Positions 3,458 to 60,520 of a DNA stretch of 64,000 nt are shown here, piece by piece. Origin of the DNA: a virus (lineage: Duplodnaviria > Caudoviricetes); IMG/VR virus record IMGVR_UViG_3300014167_000003, positions 9,998 to 73,997 of that record; one strand, given 5' to 3'. Under the pieces are notes generated by a model. It was not told where the DNA came from. It did not search any database and was given only the letters and a program-made list of their open reading frames with translations. Both the position numbers and the translations under genes were made by a program. How positions within the stretch are numbered: position 1 is the stretch's first letter; each line of letters starts with the position of its first letter.

Positions 3458-3651
3458 CTCGTCCCCCAGGTAAACACGACAGAAGAGTTCCCGTACCGGA
3501 GCCCGTCCTGGCGGCAATGAAAGCACCGCACGAACTCGACCAGGAGCGCCGGCCGGTCGCGGACCATGCCGCCCGCGTGCACGTCGATCCGCCCGGTCGG
3601 GTGCCACTCATGGCGCCACGGACCCAGATCATGGAGCGGCGCACAGAGCAT
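3454..3651 (-). CDS. Hypothetical protein with CxxC
   Basis: TGATG coupling; CFHC motif. Confidence 0.5.
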   Translation of the reverse strand: MLCAPLHDLGPWRHEWHPTGRIDVHAGGMVRDRPALLVEFVRCFHCRQDGLRYGNSSVVFTWGTR

Positions 3652-3893
3652 CACCTCGTCCTCAACATCAGCCTGGCCATCGCCTCCCGCATCACCGGCA
3701 ACCCAGCCTTCCAGCACTCCTCGTCGGCATCGCCGCACCAGCCCGTCGCGCAGTGCGCGGCGTTGAACACCGCGTAGAGCGTCTCGGCCGCCTCTGCGTT
3801 AACTCGCTCACGTTCGAGCGGCGAGAGACGTTCAAAGGCATCGGTCACCATCGGCTCCGTCCCGCAATACTCATCCAGGTTCGCGAGGCTCAT
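3651..3893 (-). CDS. Hypothetical phage protein, first of the - strand accessory run
   Basis: GGAGG RBS upstream; starts MSLANL. Confidence 0.65.
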   Translation of the reverse strand: MSLANLDEYCGTEPMVTDAFERLSPLERERVNAEAAETLYAVFNAAHCATGWCGDADEECWKAGLPVMREAMARLMLRTR

Positions 3894-21030: not shown

Positions 21031-21527
21031 CGCTGGAACTCCTGTAGCCACGACAATGCGGGAACGAGCTTGCGGTCGATCAGTCCGGTGCGGTCGAGCG
21101 CGACGGCAACGGCGGCAACATCGGACGCGAGCGGAAGGCTGGTCAGCTCCTCCAGGGCGGTCTTCAGGTGGCCCCAGATCGCCGCCTTCTCGTCGAACGT
21201 CTTTTTCCGGTCGTCGGGTGCCGCCGCACGCTTGCGCCTCTTCTTGGGCCTGTGCGCCACATGAGCGAGCGTGCGGTAGGCGCCGTCGACAGAGATCCGG
21301 CCGAGTTCGAGGTTGGCGATGATCGTCGGGTCGCCACGCAGGAGCACCTGGCGCGCCTTGACGACGCTCGACCGGTGCACCTCGAACTGGTCCGCCGCCT
21401 GCTGGATCGACACCGGAGGGTCAGCCGTCTCGTGGTGCCTGCCGTTCTCCGAGATGCCCAGGTTGCACACCCGCGCCGCCGCGAAGGCCCGGCGCGCAAT
21501 TTCTCCGTTGTCGGGTTTATCGAGCAT
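21009..21527 (-). CDS. HTH protein (ParB C-terminal-like)
   Basis: SIQQAADQFEVHRSSVVKARQVL..G...G.ISV..A; GAGG RBS right after repeat array. Confidence 0.7.
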   Translation of the reverse strand: MLDKPDNGEIARRAFAAARVCNLGISENGRHHETADPPVSIQQAADQFEVHRSSVVKARQVLLRGDPTIIANLELGRISVDGAYRTLAHVAHRPKKRRKRAAAPDDRKKTFDEKAAIWGHLKTALEELTSLPLASDVAAVAVALDRTGLIDRKLVPALSWLQEFQRCLSSKS

Positions 21528-21545
21528 TAGATCCACCTCACTGTA

Positions 21546-21903
21546 CGTTGCGATGCGTGGAGGCGAGGAGCGTGGCGATGCGATGCGAGGAGGCGCGAGG
21601 TGTCGAGCAGCTGTGCGTAGCGGTGGCAAATTTCGCAGACGTTGCGTTGCGTTGCGTTGCGGGGCGCCGCGAAGCGATGCGTTGCAGAGCGGGGCGCTGT
21701 GACGCGGAGCGCTGCACTGCGTGGATAAACTTGGTAGACGTTGCGTTGCGGGGCGACGCGAAGCGGTGCGATGCAGAGCGGCGCTCTGTGAGGCGGAGCG
21801 TTGCACTGCGGTGCGAGGTGAAGCGGAGCGGTGCGTCGTAAAATTCTGGTAGACGTTGCGAGGCGCTGCGGTGCGTGAGCGGCGTTGCATTGCGCTGTTG
21901 CGG
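21546..21903 (-). repeat. Array of four 5-nt-periodic CGC-NN units (candidate guide RNAs)
   Basis: - strand: degenerate unit A 21903-21856; unit B 21835-21741 (19 pentamers); unit C 21721-21642 (16); unit D 21622-21548 (15). Each ends CGCAA-CGT; linkers CTACCAGAATTTTA, CTACCAAGTTTAT, CTGCGAAATTT. Confidence 0.95.
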
Positions 21904-22398
21904 TCATCCCTGCGCTCCCTTGATCTTTTCGAGGAGGCTCGTGAGGTCGGGAACCGAGGAAGGCACAGCCCTGACCTTGACCGTTGCCGCCGCGTCCTCA
22001 ATAGCCGCCAGCCGCGTGTTGTTCGTCGAGGCGCGCAACTGGTCGCCCGTGGACAAGGCGTCGAACTGGACAATGTGGCCGAGGCGCTTGCGGCCCCGGC
22101 GCGCGCCGCGCGCGATCTTCTTCAGATCGGCATCGGAGTGCGCCACCAGGTCTTGGTCGTGCATCCGCTTCCAGCCGTAGCTGCGGAGCCGGCGAAAGTG
22201 CACCGGAGGGTCGCCGCGCTCCAACTCACGAAGCGCCGACCGCATCACATGACTGCCAGGGTCGACCGTATGCCCGAGCGTCTGACTGATCCGTTGGTCG
22301 GTGATCTCGTCGTTAACACCAACCAGCAGGACCGCAAGGCGGCGTGCCATTTCGGCGATCTCGGGGCGCTTGATGAACATGGGGCGCGGCGTTGTCAT
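21904..22398 (-). CDS. Accessory protein between RAMP gene and array (winged-helix-like N-terminus, basic helical C-terminus)
   Basis: Starts 3 nt after RAMP stop; MRSALREL...HFRRLRSYGWKR then helix KKIARGARRGRKRL. Confidence 0.75.
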   Translation of the reverse strand: MTTPRPMFIKRPEIAEMARRLAVLLVGVNDEITDQRISQTLGHTVDPGSHVMRSALRELERGDPPVHFRRLRSYGWKRMHDQDLVAHSDADLKKIARGARRGRKRLGHIVQFDALSTGDQLRASTNNTRLAAIEDAAATVKVRAVPSSVPDLTSLLEKIKGAQG

Positions 22399-22401
22399 GG
22401 T

Positions 22402-22959
22402 TTAGTTCCAGGTGAATTTGGTAGGTTTGAACCGACCGTTCAGCCCGCCCTTTTGCGGTTTGAAGCGGCCGATGCCGATGCTGGTGCCCGCCGTCTTCAA
22501 CACGCGTTCAAAGATCTCCTTGGTGACGGTGTCGTCCAAGATTGTGAACGCAGCGTCAGCCTCCCACTGCGGTATCACCGGGAAGGTACGCCAGACCCGC
22601 TTGCCGCTGCCCCTTACGCCATCGACGTTGCAGCTAACACGGACGGAGGCAACGGTGTCCTTCCTGGCGGCCAATACAACATCATGGTCGCAAATGACGT
22701 CGGCTTCGAAGAACTTGGTATAGGTCTTCTTGCCTTTGCCGGGGATTTGGATGCCGAGCTTTTTCGCGGAGGCGTCAAGACATTGCTTGAGGGCCATGGC
22801 CGGAATGTAGATAAAACCGTCCTCGTTGTAGTTGCACTTCTCCCGCCAAGTGCGCTTCTCGTGGTCGTCGTTCGTTTCGCCGCTCAATTTCGGCACTTCA
22901 TGCTGATGGGATTGAGAATACGGGGTAATGCTTTCAAGCCGAACAGTGACGTTACGCAT
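22402..22959 (-). CDS. Stand-alone Cas7-like RAMP (RRM-fold) protein
   Basis: First strand VRLESITPYS, YIPAMALKQCL, thumb-like GVRGSGKRV.R.FP.I..W, Gly-rich loop AG..IGIGRFKPQKGGLNGRF; GGAGG RBS; no other cas genes in window. Confidence 0.78.
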   Translation of the reverse strand: MRNVTVRLESITPYSQSHQHEVPKLSGETNDDHEKRTWREKCNYNEDGFIYIPAMALKQCLDASAKKLGIQIPGKGKKTYTKFFEADVICDHDVVLAARKDTVASVRVSCNVDGVRGSGKRVWRTFPVIPQWEADAAFTILDDTVTKEIFERVLKTAGTSIGIGRFKPQKGGLNGRFKPTKFTWN

Positions 22960-22978
22960 TGTCGTCCTCCATTATGGT

Positions 22979-23030
22979 CGTTGCGATGAGTTGCGGCGCG
23001 CAGCGCAGCTCTGCGATGCGTGGCGGGGCG
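22979..23030 (-). repeat. Fifth CGC-NN unit (10 pentamers) in the RAMP gene leader
   Basis: - strand CGCCC CGCCA CGCAT CGCAG AGCTG CGCTG CGCGC CGCAA CTCAT CGCAA, flanked on both sides by CGACCAT. Confidence 0.92.
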
Positions 23031-23039
23031 GAATGGTCG

Positions 23040-23969
23040 CTACGCTGCCTCCCGCAGGTGAAGTTTGAGCCGCTCGTCGATCTGATCCCGCCGCCACTGC
23101 GCCAGATCGATGAACTCCGCGTCCGCGCGGTCGTCGCCGGGCCCCGGCCAGTGGCCGTTCGACAAGCAGTCCGCGAACGTTCGCAACGCGGCGCGGTTCA
23201 TCTTGGCGCCGCGCGCGATGTCCTCATCGCGAAGCGTCGTCACCCGCACGCAATGCGGCGGCGTCTTCTCGACCCAGATGAGGCTGAATGAGGTGGCCTC
23301 CATGTCGAGCGCCTTGGCGCCTTCGAACACGAGACCGGCTTGCTGGCAGTAGCCGTAGTTGCCGAGAGACGCCTGCAGGTCGCGGTACACCACGCTCGTT
23401 GTCGTCTTGAGATCGCCGAAGTCGCCGCTGTCGCTCGGGATCACATCGGGCCGCGCCTTGAGCCAGATGCCGGTCTCCTGATCCTTCCAGATCATCGAGC
23501 GCTCGATCTGGCCGTTGAGGATGCCGCTCTGCACGAGCGGGTTGGCGCCGAGAGCCAGCGCCATGCCCTTGATGGCGTCGATCATGCTGTTCGTCAGGAC
23601 GGTCTTGCCGGCGCGCTGCTGGGCCCGCTTCCACTCGCGGCAGGCCTTCCTGTTGCCGTGCCAGGCGGCGCCATCGAGCCAGTCCGGCTGCACCGCGAAC
23701 TGGTCGCTGAAGCCGACCTCGCCGCAGATCAAAAAATGTGCCGCCCGGCCGAGGACGAATGCCTCGTTGTCGTCCTCGACGATGCGCTCCGGGTTGATGC
23801 CGCAGCGGGCCCAGGCGTGTGCCGGGCTCTTGTCCCAGAGCACCCGGAGCGGCGACGACGACACCGATGGGCCGACGCAAAGATCACCGTGGTACTGGGC
23901 CAGCGGGATGCCAGCGTACAGGCCGGCAACACCGATGCGTTCGCCGTTCCAGGGAATTGATCGGATCAT
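23040..23969 (-). CDS. RecE/exonuclease VIII-like PD-(D/E)XK nuclease (DUF3799-like)
   Basis: YH....VSSS.L....SPAH, GRAAH, E.S..W.D.ETG...KARPD...DLKTT, Y..Q. Confidence 0.88.
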   Translation of the reverse strand: MIRSIPWNGERIGVAGLYAGIPLAQYHGDLCVGPSVSSSPLRVLWDKSPAHAWARCGINPERIVEDDNEAFVLGRAAHFLICGEVGFSDQFAVQPDWLDGAAWHGNRKACREWKRAQQRAGKTVLTNSMIDAIKGMALALGANPLVQSGILNGQIERSMIWKDQETGIWLKARPDVIPSDSGDFGDLKTTTSVVYRDLQASLGNYGYCQQAGLVFEGAKALDMEATSFSLIWVEKTPPHCVRVTTLRDEDIARGAKMNRAALRTFADCLSNGHWPGPGDDRADAEFIDLAQWRRDQIDERLKLHLREAA

Positions 23970-58009: not shown

Positions 58010-60520
58010 CTACTTGCCTCCGCTGGGTTTCGGCTTTGCCGCCGCTGCCTTCCGCTGCACTTCCGCCATTGCCTTCTTCTGTTCGAGGTCGGCGGCATTC
58101 TTCTGCTCGTTGAGACGCATGGTCTGCTCGTGCGCCTGCTGTTGCGTCGCCAGCGTCTGCTGGTGCCGCTCGCGCTCGGCCTGCAGCTGCTGCTGGTTCC
58201 TGGCGTGGTCGGCCTGCAGCTGCACCGCCGTCTTGGCGACGTTCTGCTGCAGGTCCGCCTGGGCGCCGACGTGGTCGGTCACCATCTCGTGGTGCGCCTG
58301 CGCGCGCTGGATCGCCATGTCCTGCTGCGACTGCGCGTGCGTCATCTGCAGGTCGTGGGCGTGGATGATCATCTCGGCCTGCACCCGCATCTGCTCCAGG
58401 TAGATCTCGAAGCCCTGCATGCGCTCCTTGAACTGGCGCTCGGCGGCGGCGTCGGCGAACTCGGCCTGCTGCTTCTGCTGGTCGAGGTAGAGCTTCGCCT
58501 GGTCGATCTGCGTCTTCATTTGCTCCGCCTGCGCCTTGGCCTGAATGGCGACCATGCGCGGATCGGGCGGCGGCTGGTTCGTTTGCGCGGTGATCAGGCC
58601 CTCGCTGTCGATGTCGGCGATCCGCATGATGCGCTTCAGCGCCGCGCGGCCGTCCATGTCCTGCGGGTACTTCGTAACCAGCATGTCGATGATGGTCGCC
58701 TTGGCGATCCGGTGCAGGCTGGTCGGGTTGTTGGGATCGGCGACAGGCACCAGCTCGCGCTCTTCGAGCGCCTGCTTGAACTGCTCGATGGTCCACTGCC
58801 GCGCCGGCTTCTTGTTGTGGCGCCAGAACGCTTCAGGGTCCTCACGGAAGCGCTCCTTGAGGAGCGCGAACTCTTCCGCCTGGGCGGCATGGAGGCGCTT
58901 GTGCACGCTGTCCATGATCTTTGTCGCCTGCTCGATCAGTGCCATGGTGGTGCCGACCGGCACATCCGCCTTGCCCTCGCCGATGTTGAGGTCGGCGGTC
59001 TGGCCGAGCCGCTGGCCCACCTCCTCGATGTGCACGGCGAGCTGCGCGAACGCGGCGCCCGTGTCCTTGTACGGCAGCGGCATGAACGCGTCGCTGATCT
59101 TCATGCCCGGCGGCACGTCGACCGGGAAGCCGCCACCAGGCGGCACGCGGATCTGGTTGATGTTCTGGCGCCCGGCCTGCTTGGCGAACAGGAAGCCCGG
59201 GAAGTTCGCGAACATGCCGTTGTCGATCATGATCCGCCAGATCGCGGTCAGCGCCATGGTGACGTTGCCGAGCAGGTGGATGAGGCCGATGCCGTAGAAG
59301 CCCAGGCCACGGATGAATGGGAATTGCACGAAGAAGTTCTTGGCCAGCGCCTGCTCGTCGTCCTCGGCCCAGTTGCGGCGCACGGCGAGAACCTGGCGGC
59401 TCTCCTTCTCGATGGTGACGACGTACGGGAGCGGCAGCTCCTTGCCCTTGAATTGCTTCGGCGCGAAGTCCGGCAGGTCCCACTCGCAGTAGCATTCGTA
59501 GACGGTGTAGTCGGCGTCCTTCGGCTGCTGCGGCTGCGGCTTGTACCCGCCGATGGCGGCCTTCTCCTTCTCCGGCTCCGTGACCAGCGTCGCCGGGTCC
59601 GGCGCGCCGAGCTTGACGTCGCGGTAGTAGCCGTCGATCTGCATGCGGCGCAGCCAGGACGGCCGCATCTTGATCTTGTGCGTCACCCGGCCGCAGTTGC
59701 GGATGTCGGTCGCCGCGTTGGACACGATCATGTCCTCGGCGTCGACACTCTCCGACACCGGGCGGCGGCGCAAAGGACAGTTGTAGACCTTCTTGAAGCC
59801 GTCGCCGCCGAAGCCGACGTAGAAGAGCATGCGGTCGGTGTCAGGCACGTACTCGGTCGCGGTGACGGTGAGATAGTGGTTGAAGTCCTTTTCGAGCGCC
59901 GAGCCCAGGTCGTCCATCGCCTGGCCCTCGATGTCGCCGGGCGGGTTGTTGTGGCCCATGCCGGGAGCCGGCGGCGTACCGGGCGGCGGCTCCGGCAGAT
60001 CCGGCCGCATCGGCTGGTCGTTGCGGACCTTGACCGGGCCGGCGGCGGGCAGCAGCTCGCCGCGCGCGGTCGCCTGAAACTTGACGGTCGCCTCCAGGAG
60101 GAGCGGGTGCCGGATCGTCGACATGCCTTCCAGTGGCGCCGAGGATGTGCCGAGATCGCCGCGCGGCTCCTCGATCTTCAGGCCGAGGAAACGAATGCCG
60201 GTCGCGCGCGTGTCCATCCAGTCCTTGCGCGAGTCGATGTCGAGCTGGATGCCGGTGAGCAGATCCGACGCCATGCGGCCGAGTTCGTCGTCGCTGATCT
60301 CGCCGGCAAGGTTGCGGTAGAAGTCGTTCTCGTCGACATCGCCGGCATCGATGCCGCTGCCGTCGCTGATGGTGACGGAGCCGTCCTCGTGCTCGATGTG
60401 CGTGGTGCCGTCGTGGTGGGAGATCTTCGGCGCGCCGTCGCCAAGATCGATCTCAGTAGGGTCCAGCTGCGCCTCTGTGGGCGCTGGATCAACCAGACGA
60501 AGACCTGACGGCGCGGCCAT
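58010..60520 (-). CDS. Portal protein
   Basis: 836 aa after TerL; HPLL.EA..FQA.A..EL, G..FKKVY, GFYGIGLIHL, P.GT..AL.E, coiled-coil tail. Confidence 0.9.
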   Translation of the reverse strand: MAAPSGLRLVDPAPTEAQLDPTEIDLGDGAPKISHHDGTTHIEHEDGSVTISDGSGIDAGDVDENDFYRNLAGEISDDELGRMASDLLTGIQLDIDSRKDWMDTRATGIRFLGLKIEEPRGDLGTSSAPLEGMSTIRHPLLLEATVKFQATARGELLPAAGPVKVRNDQPMRPDLPEPPPGTPPAPGMGHNNPPGDIEGQAMDDLGSALEKDFNHYLTVTATEYVPDTDRMLFYVGFGGDGFKKVYNCPLRRRPVSESVDAEDMIVSNAATDIRNCGRVTHKIKMRPSWLRRMQIDGYYRDVKLGAPDPATLVTEPEKEKAAIGGYKPQPQQPKDADYTVYECYCEWDLPDFAPKQFKGKELPLPYVVTIEKESRQVLAVRRNWAEDDEQALAKNFFVQFPFIRGLGFYGIGLIHLLGNVTMALTAIWRIMIDNGMFANFPGFLFAKQAGRQNINQIRVPPGGGFPVDVPPGMKISDAFMPLPYKDTGAAFAQLAVHIEEVGQRLGQTADLNIGEGKADVPVGTTMALIEQATKIMDSVHKRLHAAQAEEFALLKERFREDPEAFWRHNKKPARQWTIEQFKQALEERELVPVADPNNPTSLHRIAKATIIDMLVTKYPQDMDGRAALKRIMRIADIDSEGLITAQTNQPPPDPRMVAIQAKAQAEQMKTQIDQAKLYLDQQKQQAEFADAAAERQFKERMQGFEIYLEQMRVQAEMIIHAHDLQMTHAQSQQDMAIQRAQAHHEMVTDHVGAQADLQQNVAKTAVQLQADHARNQQQLQAERERHQQTLATQQQAHEQTMRLNEQKNAADLEQKKAMAEVQRKAAAAKPKPSGGK

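Follow-up and report, generated by a model that had tools for sequence, protein, structure and literature searches.

A probable VIPR locus of the CGC-scaffold type, with a duplicated pair of guide units, in an uncultivated phage

The pentamer-rich stretch examined here is, with a probability that we would put at about 85%, part of a VIPR locus of the CGC-scaffold type belonging to an uncultivated phage, in which two adjacent repeat units (B and C) are sister guide RNAs. This assignment is based on the RAMP fold of the protein encoded beside the array, on the homology of this protein to the Vipr of Escherichia phage SUSP1, on the linkage between such arrays and the vipr gene in related loci, and on the finding that the guides of a sibling system follow the skip-one/wobble rule of VIPR. 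The 64,000-nt sequence analysed (hereafter, the window) derives from a virus record of 73,997 nt with a GC content of 64%, and the locus lies on its minus strand.

VIPR, as presented in a 2026 preprint, comprises a phage-borne minimal RAMP protein (Vipr), an accessory vap gene whose product has a predicted DNA-interacting fold and a set of vrRNAs, and serves for the RNA-guided silencing of the DNA of competing phages and satellites (10.64898/2026.04.26.720920). According to the same text, a vrRNA is made of 9-16 YNNGG pentamers plus a 3′ tail, one vrRNA being located upstream of the genes and several downstream; the reference arrays are expressed as RNAs of ~100 nt, which are recovered together with Vipr on purification; and double-stranded DNA is read by the NN pairs, one base (usually the codon wobble) being skipped per pair, with targets on both strands (10.64898/2026.04.26.720920). 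Escherichia phage SUSP1 and a Pseudomonas fulva prophage are given there as type II examples, and 'a related consensus' to GGY is permitted, YNNNG repeats being among those listed (10.64898/2026.04.26.720920). By cryo-EM, one protomer is seen per repeat, which sequesters the GGY triplet and exposes NN for pairing (10.64898/2026.04.26.720927), and in a satellite recombinase gene targeting has been found to track the periodicity of the codons (10.64898/2026.10.15.759431).

Organization of the locus

Reading along the minus strand, the gene for a RecE-like exonuclease (23040-23969; DUF3799, phrog_412) is followed by a single pentamer unit, E (22975-23037), composed of about ten C-NN-C-G pentamers and ending with AACGA and a short tail, ~10 nt ahead of the ribosome-binding site of vipr. 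The vipr gene (22402-22959, minus strand) encodes a Cas7-like RAMP of 185 aa, with the G-rich loop GIGRFKPQKGG; 3 nt past its stop codon starts a vap-like accessory gene of 164 aa (21904-22398, minus strand). Four more units come next, all on the minus strand. Unit A (21836-21903; about ten pentamers) has a degenerate 5′ end and a 1-nt phase slip, only the last four or five pentamers being regular, and carries the tail CAACGTCTACCAGAATTTTACGA. Unit B (21722-21835) contains 19 pentamers, 17 of them with variable NN and then two with AA, before the tail CAACGTCTACCAAGTTTATCCA, while unit C (21623-21721) contains 16 (12 variable, then four AA) before the tail CAACGTCTGCGAAATTTGCCAC. Unit D (21536-21622) is made of 15 pentamers, including several CTC, CAC and AGC variants, and its end, CAACGT, stands just ahead of the ribosome-binding site of the following gene, whose start codon is at 21527. 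Past the array come a 172-aa gene (no relation), a phrog_5931 gene and, farther downstream, a RecT-like gene; the other neighbours are genes without an assigned family.

The 5-nt periodicity, which a preliminary description of this DNA had placed within a shorter interval, thus runs through four units at 21536-21903 and a fifth at 22975-23037. In gene-sense reading, every unit is a run of 10-19 C-NN-C-G pentamers, whose 3′ end is formed by two to four CAACG pentamers and then a tail of ~22 nt, such as that of unit B. Across the clade, the tail can be described as (CGCAA)2-4, then CG[T/A], then a short conserved linker.

When folded as RNA, the units performed no better than their shuffled versions (z -0.9 for B, +0.6 for C and +1.7 for D), as expected for protein-coated guides, and no pseudoknot of the SUSP1-clade type was evident in the short tail. 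Searches with Rfam at gathering thresholds returned no family, and no tRNA genes were found. A CRISPR-Cas repeat-spacer array is absent from the neighbourhood, as are Cas5, Cas6, Cas10, Cas3 and Cas1; the only repeats are the pentamer units themselves.

For many vrRNA units, the distance from their end to the ribosome-binding site and start codon of the gene that follows is 10-30 nt, as observed at window positions 21536-21550 and 22975-22990 and in related loci (designated by L numbers) at L009:2915-3000 and L023:3565-3670. In several loci, moreover, single vrRNA units are interleaved among the genes, so that for units near gene starts a cis effect on translation, or a role in processing, is possible.

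The Vipr protein and its partner

The AF2 model of the 185-aa protein (pLDDT 89) was matched by Foldseek to type VII Cas7, Csm3 and Cmr4 at E about 3e-7, and with VIA-align (Z about 11) the matches at the top of the list were Cas7-type RAMPs only, as would suit Vipr, a minimal single-RRM RAMP with a thumb and a glycine-rich loop. No Pfam family was found for the protein, which has 1865 homologues, the best 120 of the 1865 being 56-75% identical to it. Similarity to SUSP1 Vipr is absent at the BLAST level: the relationship is remote, and is brought out by profile methods only. A profile of the family (A1) gave one match in the 90.7-kb SUSP1 genome (KT454805.2; E 4e-5), and the place matched is the ORF located between the GGY/NN arrays, i.e., the reference Vipr. 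A direct comparison of A1 with SUSP1 Vipr by hhalign yielded a probability of 83.5% (E 8e-6, over 132 columns). The arrays of SUSP1 lie on the vipr strand, one upstream of the gene and three downstream.

Within the family, the G-rich loop does not vary, reading GIGRF(K/R)PxxGG throughout. The two residues that read guanine in SUSP1 Vipr, D177 and W178, are replaced by R and F in the 185-aa protein; given this replacement, and given that the triplet here is CGC and not GGY, the details of RNA recognition may differ from those in SUSP1. The aligned Vipr sequences (residues 156-180 of the window protein) have the same G-loop, G(I/V)GRFRPE, in CGC, CTC, GGC and GAC loci alike, the corresponding stretch in SUSP1 being GVGDWRPR. 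We accordingly found no covariation of G-loop residues with the type of triplet; the loop being invariant across triplet types, the scaffold triplet does not covary with the residues that read guanine in SUSP1.

The model of the 164-aa protein is of moderate quality (AF2, pLDDT 74) and consists of a winged-helix-like N-terminal half followed by long helices. Its Foldseek matches were all weak (E 0.02-0.5) and corresponded to winged-helix regulators (MarR, ArsR, GntR and ScpB folds). Homologues of this protein adjoin vipr in L001, L004, L011, L023 and L048-L050, and a distant one occurs in L002; by BLAST, no similarity to SUSP1 vap1 was detected.

Related loci and their scaffold triplets

For comparison, we collected 37 loci from metagenomes and named genomes (e.g., Paracoccus, Devosia, Bradyrhizobium, Roseomonas and Lichenihabitans). 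In 34 of the 37, sense-strand pentamer arrays were found beside the vipr homologue, and the three array-less loci are cut off by contig ends; on the antisense strand of the related loci the array triplet is mostly absent. An array directly upstream of vipr, as in the window, occurs also in L001, L004 and L048-L050. The three closest relatives (71-75% identical protein) have the same triplets and tails and unrelated NN strings.

The triplet depends on the locus: it is CGC in most alphaproteobacterial loci, and, over the whole set, GGC in three loci, GAC in one, and CTC in a low-GC Flavobacteriaceae-type phage and a few others. CTC-NN arrays, whose triplet has no guanine, were observed at L002:4590-5085 and in L003 and L007 (low-GC Flavobacteriaceae-type phage contigs), as well as in L018 and L025, with units ending in CTCAACTCAACT plus ATTCGTTTGT. 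The CTC consensus is outside the variants named in the VIPR preprint, namely YNNGG, NNNGG, YNNNG and NNNNG (10.64898/2026.04.26.720920).

Because the first two triplet bases vary by lineage under an invariant G-loop, and because the CTC type is guanine-free, one could imagine that the CGC/CTC/GGC/GAC clade, with its more than 1800 members, reads its guide scaffold differently from SUSP1 Vipr, in a more relaxed way. One could also imagine that the apparently strong antisense bias of its guides (see below) reflects a preference for the non-template strand or mRNA, undescribed for VIPR. We regard this proposal, which is drawn from sequence comparisons, as unlikely.

The phage also encodes an SU10-type portal protein (58010-60520 of the window, minus strand) whose homologues in metagenomes number in the thousands; identity is 52-75% for the 120 listed with the best scores, many of them on contigs of 70-77 kb. 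Judging from these thousands of homologues, the phage is a member of a large uncultivated family. The sole named match among the portal homologues listed comes from a fragment of a Reyranella MAG and is not strong enough to serve as a pointer to the host.

The skip-one code in a Paracoccus prophage

Since the host of the window phage was not found, the code was tested on a sibling system, carried by a Paracoccus litorisediminis prophage (L008; NZ_WMIG01000026.1), whose Vipr is 58% identical to that of the window. Targets of its guides were sought in 121 Paracoccus genomes.

The guide L008:2900 (positions 2900-2964) reads GA CC CT AT GA CG GT AC CT GT, with one base skipped per pair. In the 121 genomes it gave four perfect skip-one matches (20/20) and four others with 1-2 mismatches, as compared to 1 match for its reversed-pattern control. 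The four perfect matches fall at one site, where the skipped wobble bases are the only ones that vary among them. This site encodes the peptide DPLIERVTLV, which in L058 (the locus examined) is part of the ATPase domain of a prophage gpA-type terminase large subunit. A second guide, L008:3580 (3580-3654), had matches with 2-3 mismatches in 21 of the 121 genomes, the control giving 0. Its site corresponds to the catalytic motif of a large serine recombinase (IYTRKSSEEGL); here, too, the skips are on wobble bases, and the guide is antisense to the gene. The Paracoccus guides with targets are therefore one sense (L008:2900) and one antisense (L008:3580).

The matches to terminase and recombinase genes, with their skips on wobble bases, indicate that CGC-type arrays are guides obeying the published VIPR skip-one rule. 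The mechanism put forward in the preliminary description, with NN as guide letters and, after every pair, an unread base that falls on the wobble position, coincides with that rule and was reproduced in the Paracoccus sibling.

Duplication of units B and C

A gapless alignment of B (21741-21810) with C (21652-21721) on the + strand shows 7 mismatches in 70 bases, at offsets 15, 25, 30, 41, 44, 51 and 60. In the NN-GCG register, 6 of the mismatches are among the 28 NN bases and 1 (GCT vs GCG) is among the 42 triplet bases, an excess at NN with a one-sided Fisher P=0.014. Re-alignment thus returned exactly the counts given in the preliminary description for the 14 aligned pentamers, and the + strand dinucleotide lists offered there for B and C were also correct.

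The off-consensus triplets TGC, CAC and TGC (minus strand) occur at identical positions in B and C, and the core NN strings are identical at 18/24 bases. Furthermore, when ~130 units from the 37 loci were compared, B/C was the sole clearly related within-locus pair found. On these grounds, B and C are true duplicates, as opposed to units with a chance resemblance, with C paralogous to the 3′ two-thirds of B. Tandem Repeats Finder reported a 30-nt period inside B (21739-21834; 3.2 copies, 69% match), from which B itself seems to have grown through internal duplication of six-pentamer blocks.

Codon-like reading and orientation of the guides

In the + strand reading, the residue pairs implied by the differences between B and C are T/P, V/I, I/(F,L), A/G, S/T and (F,L)/L. 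Scored with BLOSUM62, the six differences have an expected mean of +0.43, as compared to -0.6 to -0.8 for a null of random single-base changes (P 0.02-0.04, for six changes and one of two possible readings; about 0.04-0.08 if both readings are allowed). In the opposite reading the mean is -0.98. The earlier remark that most changes are conservative when read on the + strand thus held up, the score of +0.43 standing against about -0.7 (P 0.02-0.04 for that single reading). A repetition of this substitution test was sought in further paralogous guide pairs, and none of the ~130 units from the 37 loci provided an informative one.

The composition of the guides was also considered at the level of the family. 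For the 592 NN pairs from 20 high-GC loci of the CGC type, the correlation of their frequencies with the reverse complement of codon positions 1-2 is r=0.73, as opposed to r=-0.23 for the sense orientation, and the other codon phases fit far worse. With the same 592 pairs, a model that mixes antisense codon(1,2) frequencies with a uniform background outperforms the uniform model by 15.5 log-likelihood units. The BLOSUM62 test on B/C and the NN composition together suggest that CGC-type guides are antisense to coding strands and skip the wobble base.

Searches for targets of the window guides

In the phage record of 73,997 nt, no self-targets beyond those of shuffled guides were observed with skips of 0, 1 or 2, so that the gapped NN search suggested in the preliminary description brought no excess in the phage's own sequence at these skips. 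A merged B/C pattern with exact skip-one spacing (42 bits) had 0 matches in viral, genome and metagenome collections, and exact skip-one patterns built from units D and E and from the 5′ portion of B had 0 matches in viral contigs. A looser, residue-tolerant B/C pattern had 0 matches in viral contigs and 1 in metagenomes; the latter places the skip on codon position 1 of a gene with a NifU domain, and was set aside as a chance match. Allowing up to 3 mismatches, the B pattern matched once in 401 genomes from the order of the closest named Vipr host, vs one match for the control. This match, in a dehydrogenase-like housekeeping gene and out of codon phase, was likewise attributed to chance. With up to 2 mismatches, the merged B/C pattern gave 0 matches in 301 Alphaproteobacteria genomes.

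Nothing above shuffled guides emerged from 20 related phage loci, which cover the surroundings of the portal and terminase genes, or from five whole related viral records. When the 93 guides of all loci were run against all loci (~300 kb), no enrichment was seen at any skip length. At the peptide level, the motif encoded by B/C did not exceed shuffles in the phage and the loci, in agreement with the preliminary description, whose author had seen no such peptide in the window by eye. The idea that B and C are guides to one homologous gene in rival phages is hence plausible and unproven, no target of B, C, D or E having been found in the phage, three public collections, 20 related loci and ~700 alphaproteobacterial genomes.

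Proposed mechanism and alternative explanations

Along the minus strand, the putative system starts with a single vrRNA unit, followed by vipr, a winged-helix-like vap gene and another four vrRNA units. If it works as in SUSP1, each unit would be transcribed in the vipr sense, and one Vipr protomer would bind to each pentamer, sequestering the conserved C-G-C triplet and leaving the two NN bases exposed. The NN pairs would jointly base-pair with double-stranded target DNA, every third base being skipped, and the bound filament would silence transcription of a competing phage or mobile element. Transcription, RNP formation and DNA silencing at the window locus are what we infer from the analogy with SUSP1. 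As to B and C, they arose from the duplication of one guide; selection for Vipr binding would have maintained the triplets and the tail while the guide letters diverged.

In our estimate, there is a close to even, if slightly lower, chance that retargeting has directed B to one variant of a protein-coding gene and C to another, both guides being antisense to its coding strand. Alternatively, B and C may be VIPR guides whose differences merely reflect neutral drift after a recent tandem duplication, with one copy perhaps redundant or targetless and with a codon-like look that is coincidental. The excess of NN mismatches would be expected from purifying selection on the triplets alone, the substitutions are just six (with P about 0.04-0.08 once the two readings are allowed for), no target for B or C came out of the searches made, and no second informative paralogous pair was found among the ~130 units of the 37 loci. 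However, the conservative pattern has the same orientation as the independent, family-wide NN composition, and the target sites in Paracoccus differ only at wobble bases, showing that guides track protein-level conservation. Drift appears to us a serious possibility, albeit one that we would not call probable.

The other alternatives concern the nature of the array. The pentamer units might be cis-regulatory leader RNAs, on whose triplets a TRAP-like multimer would assemble to control downstream translation, with no target in trans. TRAP, which binds 11 triplets separated by 2-3 nt spacers, sets a precedent for the recognition of spaced triplets, and units E and D, together with many units of the relatives, end 10-30 nt before a ribosome-binding site. 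TRAP itself (GAG/UAG triplets, 2-3 nt spacers) resembles the present case in its triplet-plus-spacer periodicity and in binding as a homo-oligomer; on the other hand, its fold is unrelated, it forms a closed 11-mer ring, it is a cis regulator and its spacers carry no information. Moreover, a leader function would leave unexplained the hypervariable NN beside conserved triplets and the existence of multi-unit arrays in which units have their own tails, not to mention the perfect gapped matches of a sibling guide to terminase genes and the matches to recombinase genes. We therefore consider it very unlikely that the arrays are simply leaders, but a cis effect could coexist with the guide function.

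The location of the arrays, in an early replication/recombination region near RecE-like and RecT-like genes and a winged-helix protein, would also suit a set of duplex DNA binding sites (origin iterons, a centromere or a packaging site) for a winged-helix or another DNA-binding protein. However, the orientation of the arrays relative to vipr is fixed in 34 loci of very different gene context, and their partner in every array locus is an RNA-binding RAMP, not a replication protein. In addition, the guides of the sibling match foreign genes by the skip-one code, and the reference arrays are described in the preprint as being expressed as RNAs of ~100 nt that co-purify with Vipr (10.64898/2026.04.26.720920). 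In the face of these observations, binding sites in duplex DNA seem highly improbable.

Finally, it is scarcely credible that the array is a protein-coding gene (ORF 21527-21907, minus strand; 126 aa) for a pentapeptide-like repeat protein. In favour of such a gene, its frame is open, its ATG shares bases with the stop codon of the gene before it, its own stop does so with the start codon of the gene after it, and gene callers predict similar ORFs over the arrays of relatives (e.g., L001 5034-5780 and L003 4576-5493). The open frame is nevertheless uninformative, because CGCNN repeats cannot form stop codons in any minus-strand frame; all three are open, and one of the ORFs that cover the region reaches 354 aa. 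Searches of Pfam and PHROG gave no family for the 126-aa ORF, the repeats have a period of 5 nt rather than 3 nt, with units that slip phase by 1 nt, and in the relatives triplets and tails are preserved but the NN bases, and hence any protein sequence, are not. Proteins of 126-305 aa have been called, by gene callers and in a simple list of ORFs, across arrays in the window (21527-21907, minus strand) and at L001:5034-5780, L003:4576-5493 and L050:4045-4548; since CGCNN and CTCNN repeats are devoid of stop codons, such array-spanning calls are likely annotation artefacts in public data.

Comparison with known systems

The locus resembles VIPR of SUSP1 in being a minimal two-gene phage locus that encodes a small Cas7-like RAMP with a G-rich loop, in having one vrRNA upstream (at the same position as unit E) and an array downstream on the same strand, and in the make-up of the units, with 9-19 pentamers each, three conserved and two hypervariable bases per pentamer and a conserved 3′ tail. 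The accessory protein, to judge from its model, may be similar to a DNA binder, and the sibling system adds skip-one/wobble guides directed against a prophage terminase and a recombinase.

There are also differences. The triplet is CGC (C-NN-C-G), which deviates from the GGY consensus and probably represents the 'YNNNG' variant that appears in the preprint, while relatives of this locus use CTC, GGC or GAC. The G-loop contains GRF, in place of GDW in SUSP1. The tail is short (~22 nt) and shows no evident pseudoknot, whereas the SUSP1 clade has one, and the 164-aa vap gene lacks detectable similarity to SUSP1 vap1. Lastly, the guides of this clade look biased to the antisense of coding strands.

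With class 1 CRISPR-Cas systems, in which Cas7, Csm3 or Cmr4 assemble on crRNA, the locus has in common the RAMP fold, with its thumb and G-loop, and presumably the use of one protomer per fixed-length RNA segment, with bases flipped out periodically. In contrast to those systems, no repeat-spacer array and no Cas5, Cas6, Cas10, Cas3 or Cas1 are found near this locus; the segment is 5 nt with three bases sequestered, as opposed to 6 nt with one base flipped; and the guide information is non-contiguous.

Significance

What is new in these results is modest, and consists of the triplet variation under an invariant G-loop, the guanine-free CTC sub-type and the apparent antisense bias of the guides; the mechanism is already published, and no new kind of biology is involved. 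Nevertheless, VIPR is known only from preprints since April 2026, and the window locus extends it to a very large and highly conserved CGC-scaffold clade of environmental, mostly alphaproteobacterial phages. With the Paracoccus matches, the skip-one/wobble code gains independent support, of a computational kind, in bacteria other than Enterobacteria and Pseudomonas. Units B and C, for their part, provide a natural case of guide duplication followed by the change of guide letters only, which could be a way for these phages to diversify their target range without any acquisition machinery.
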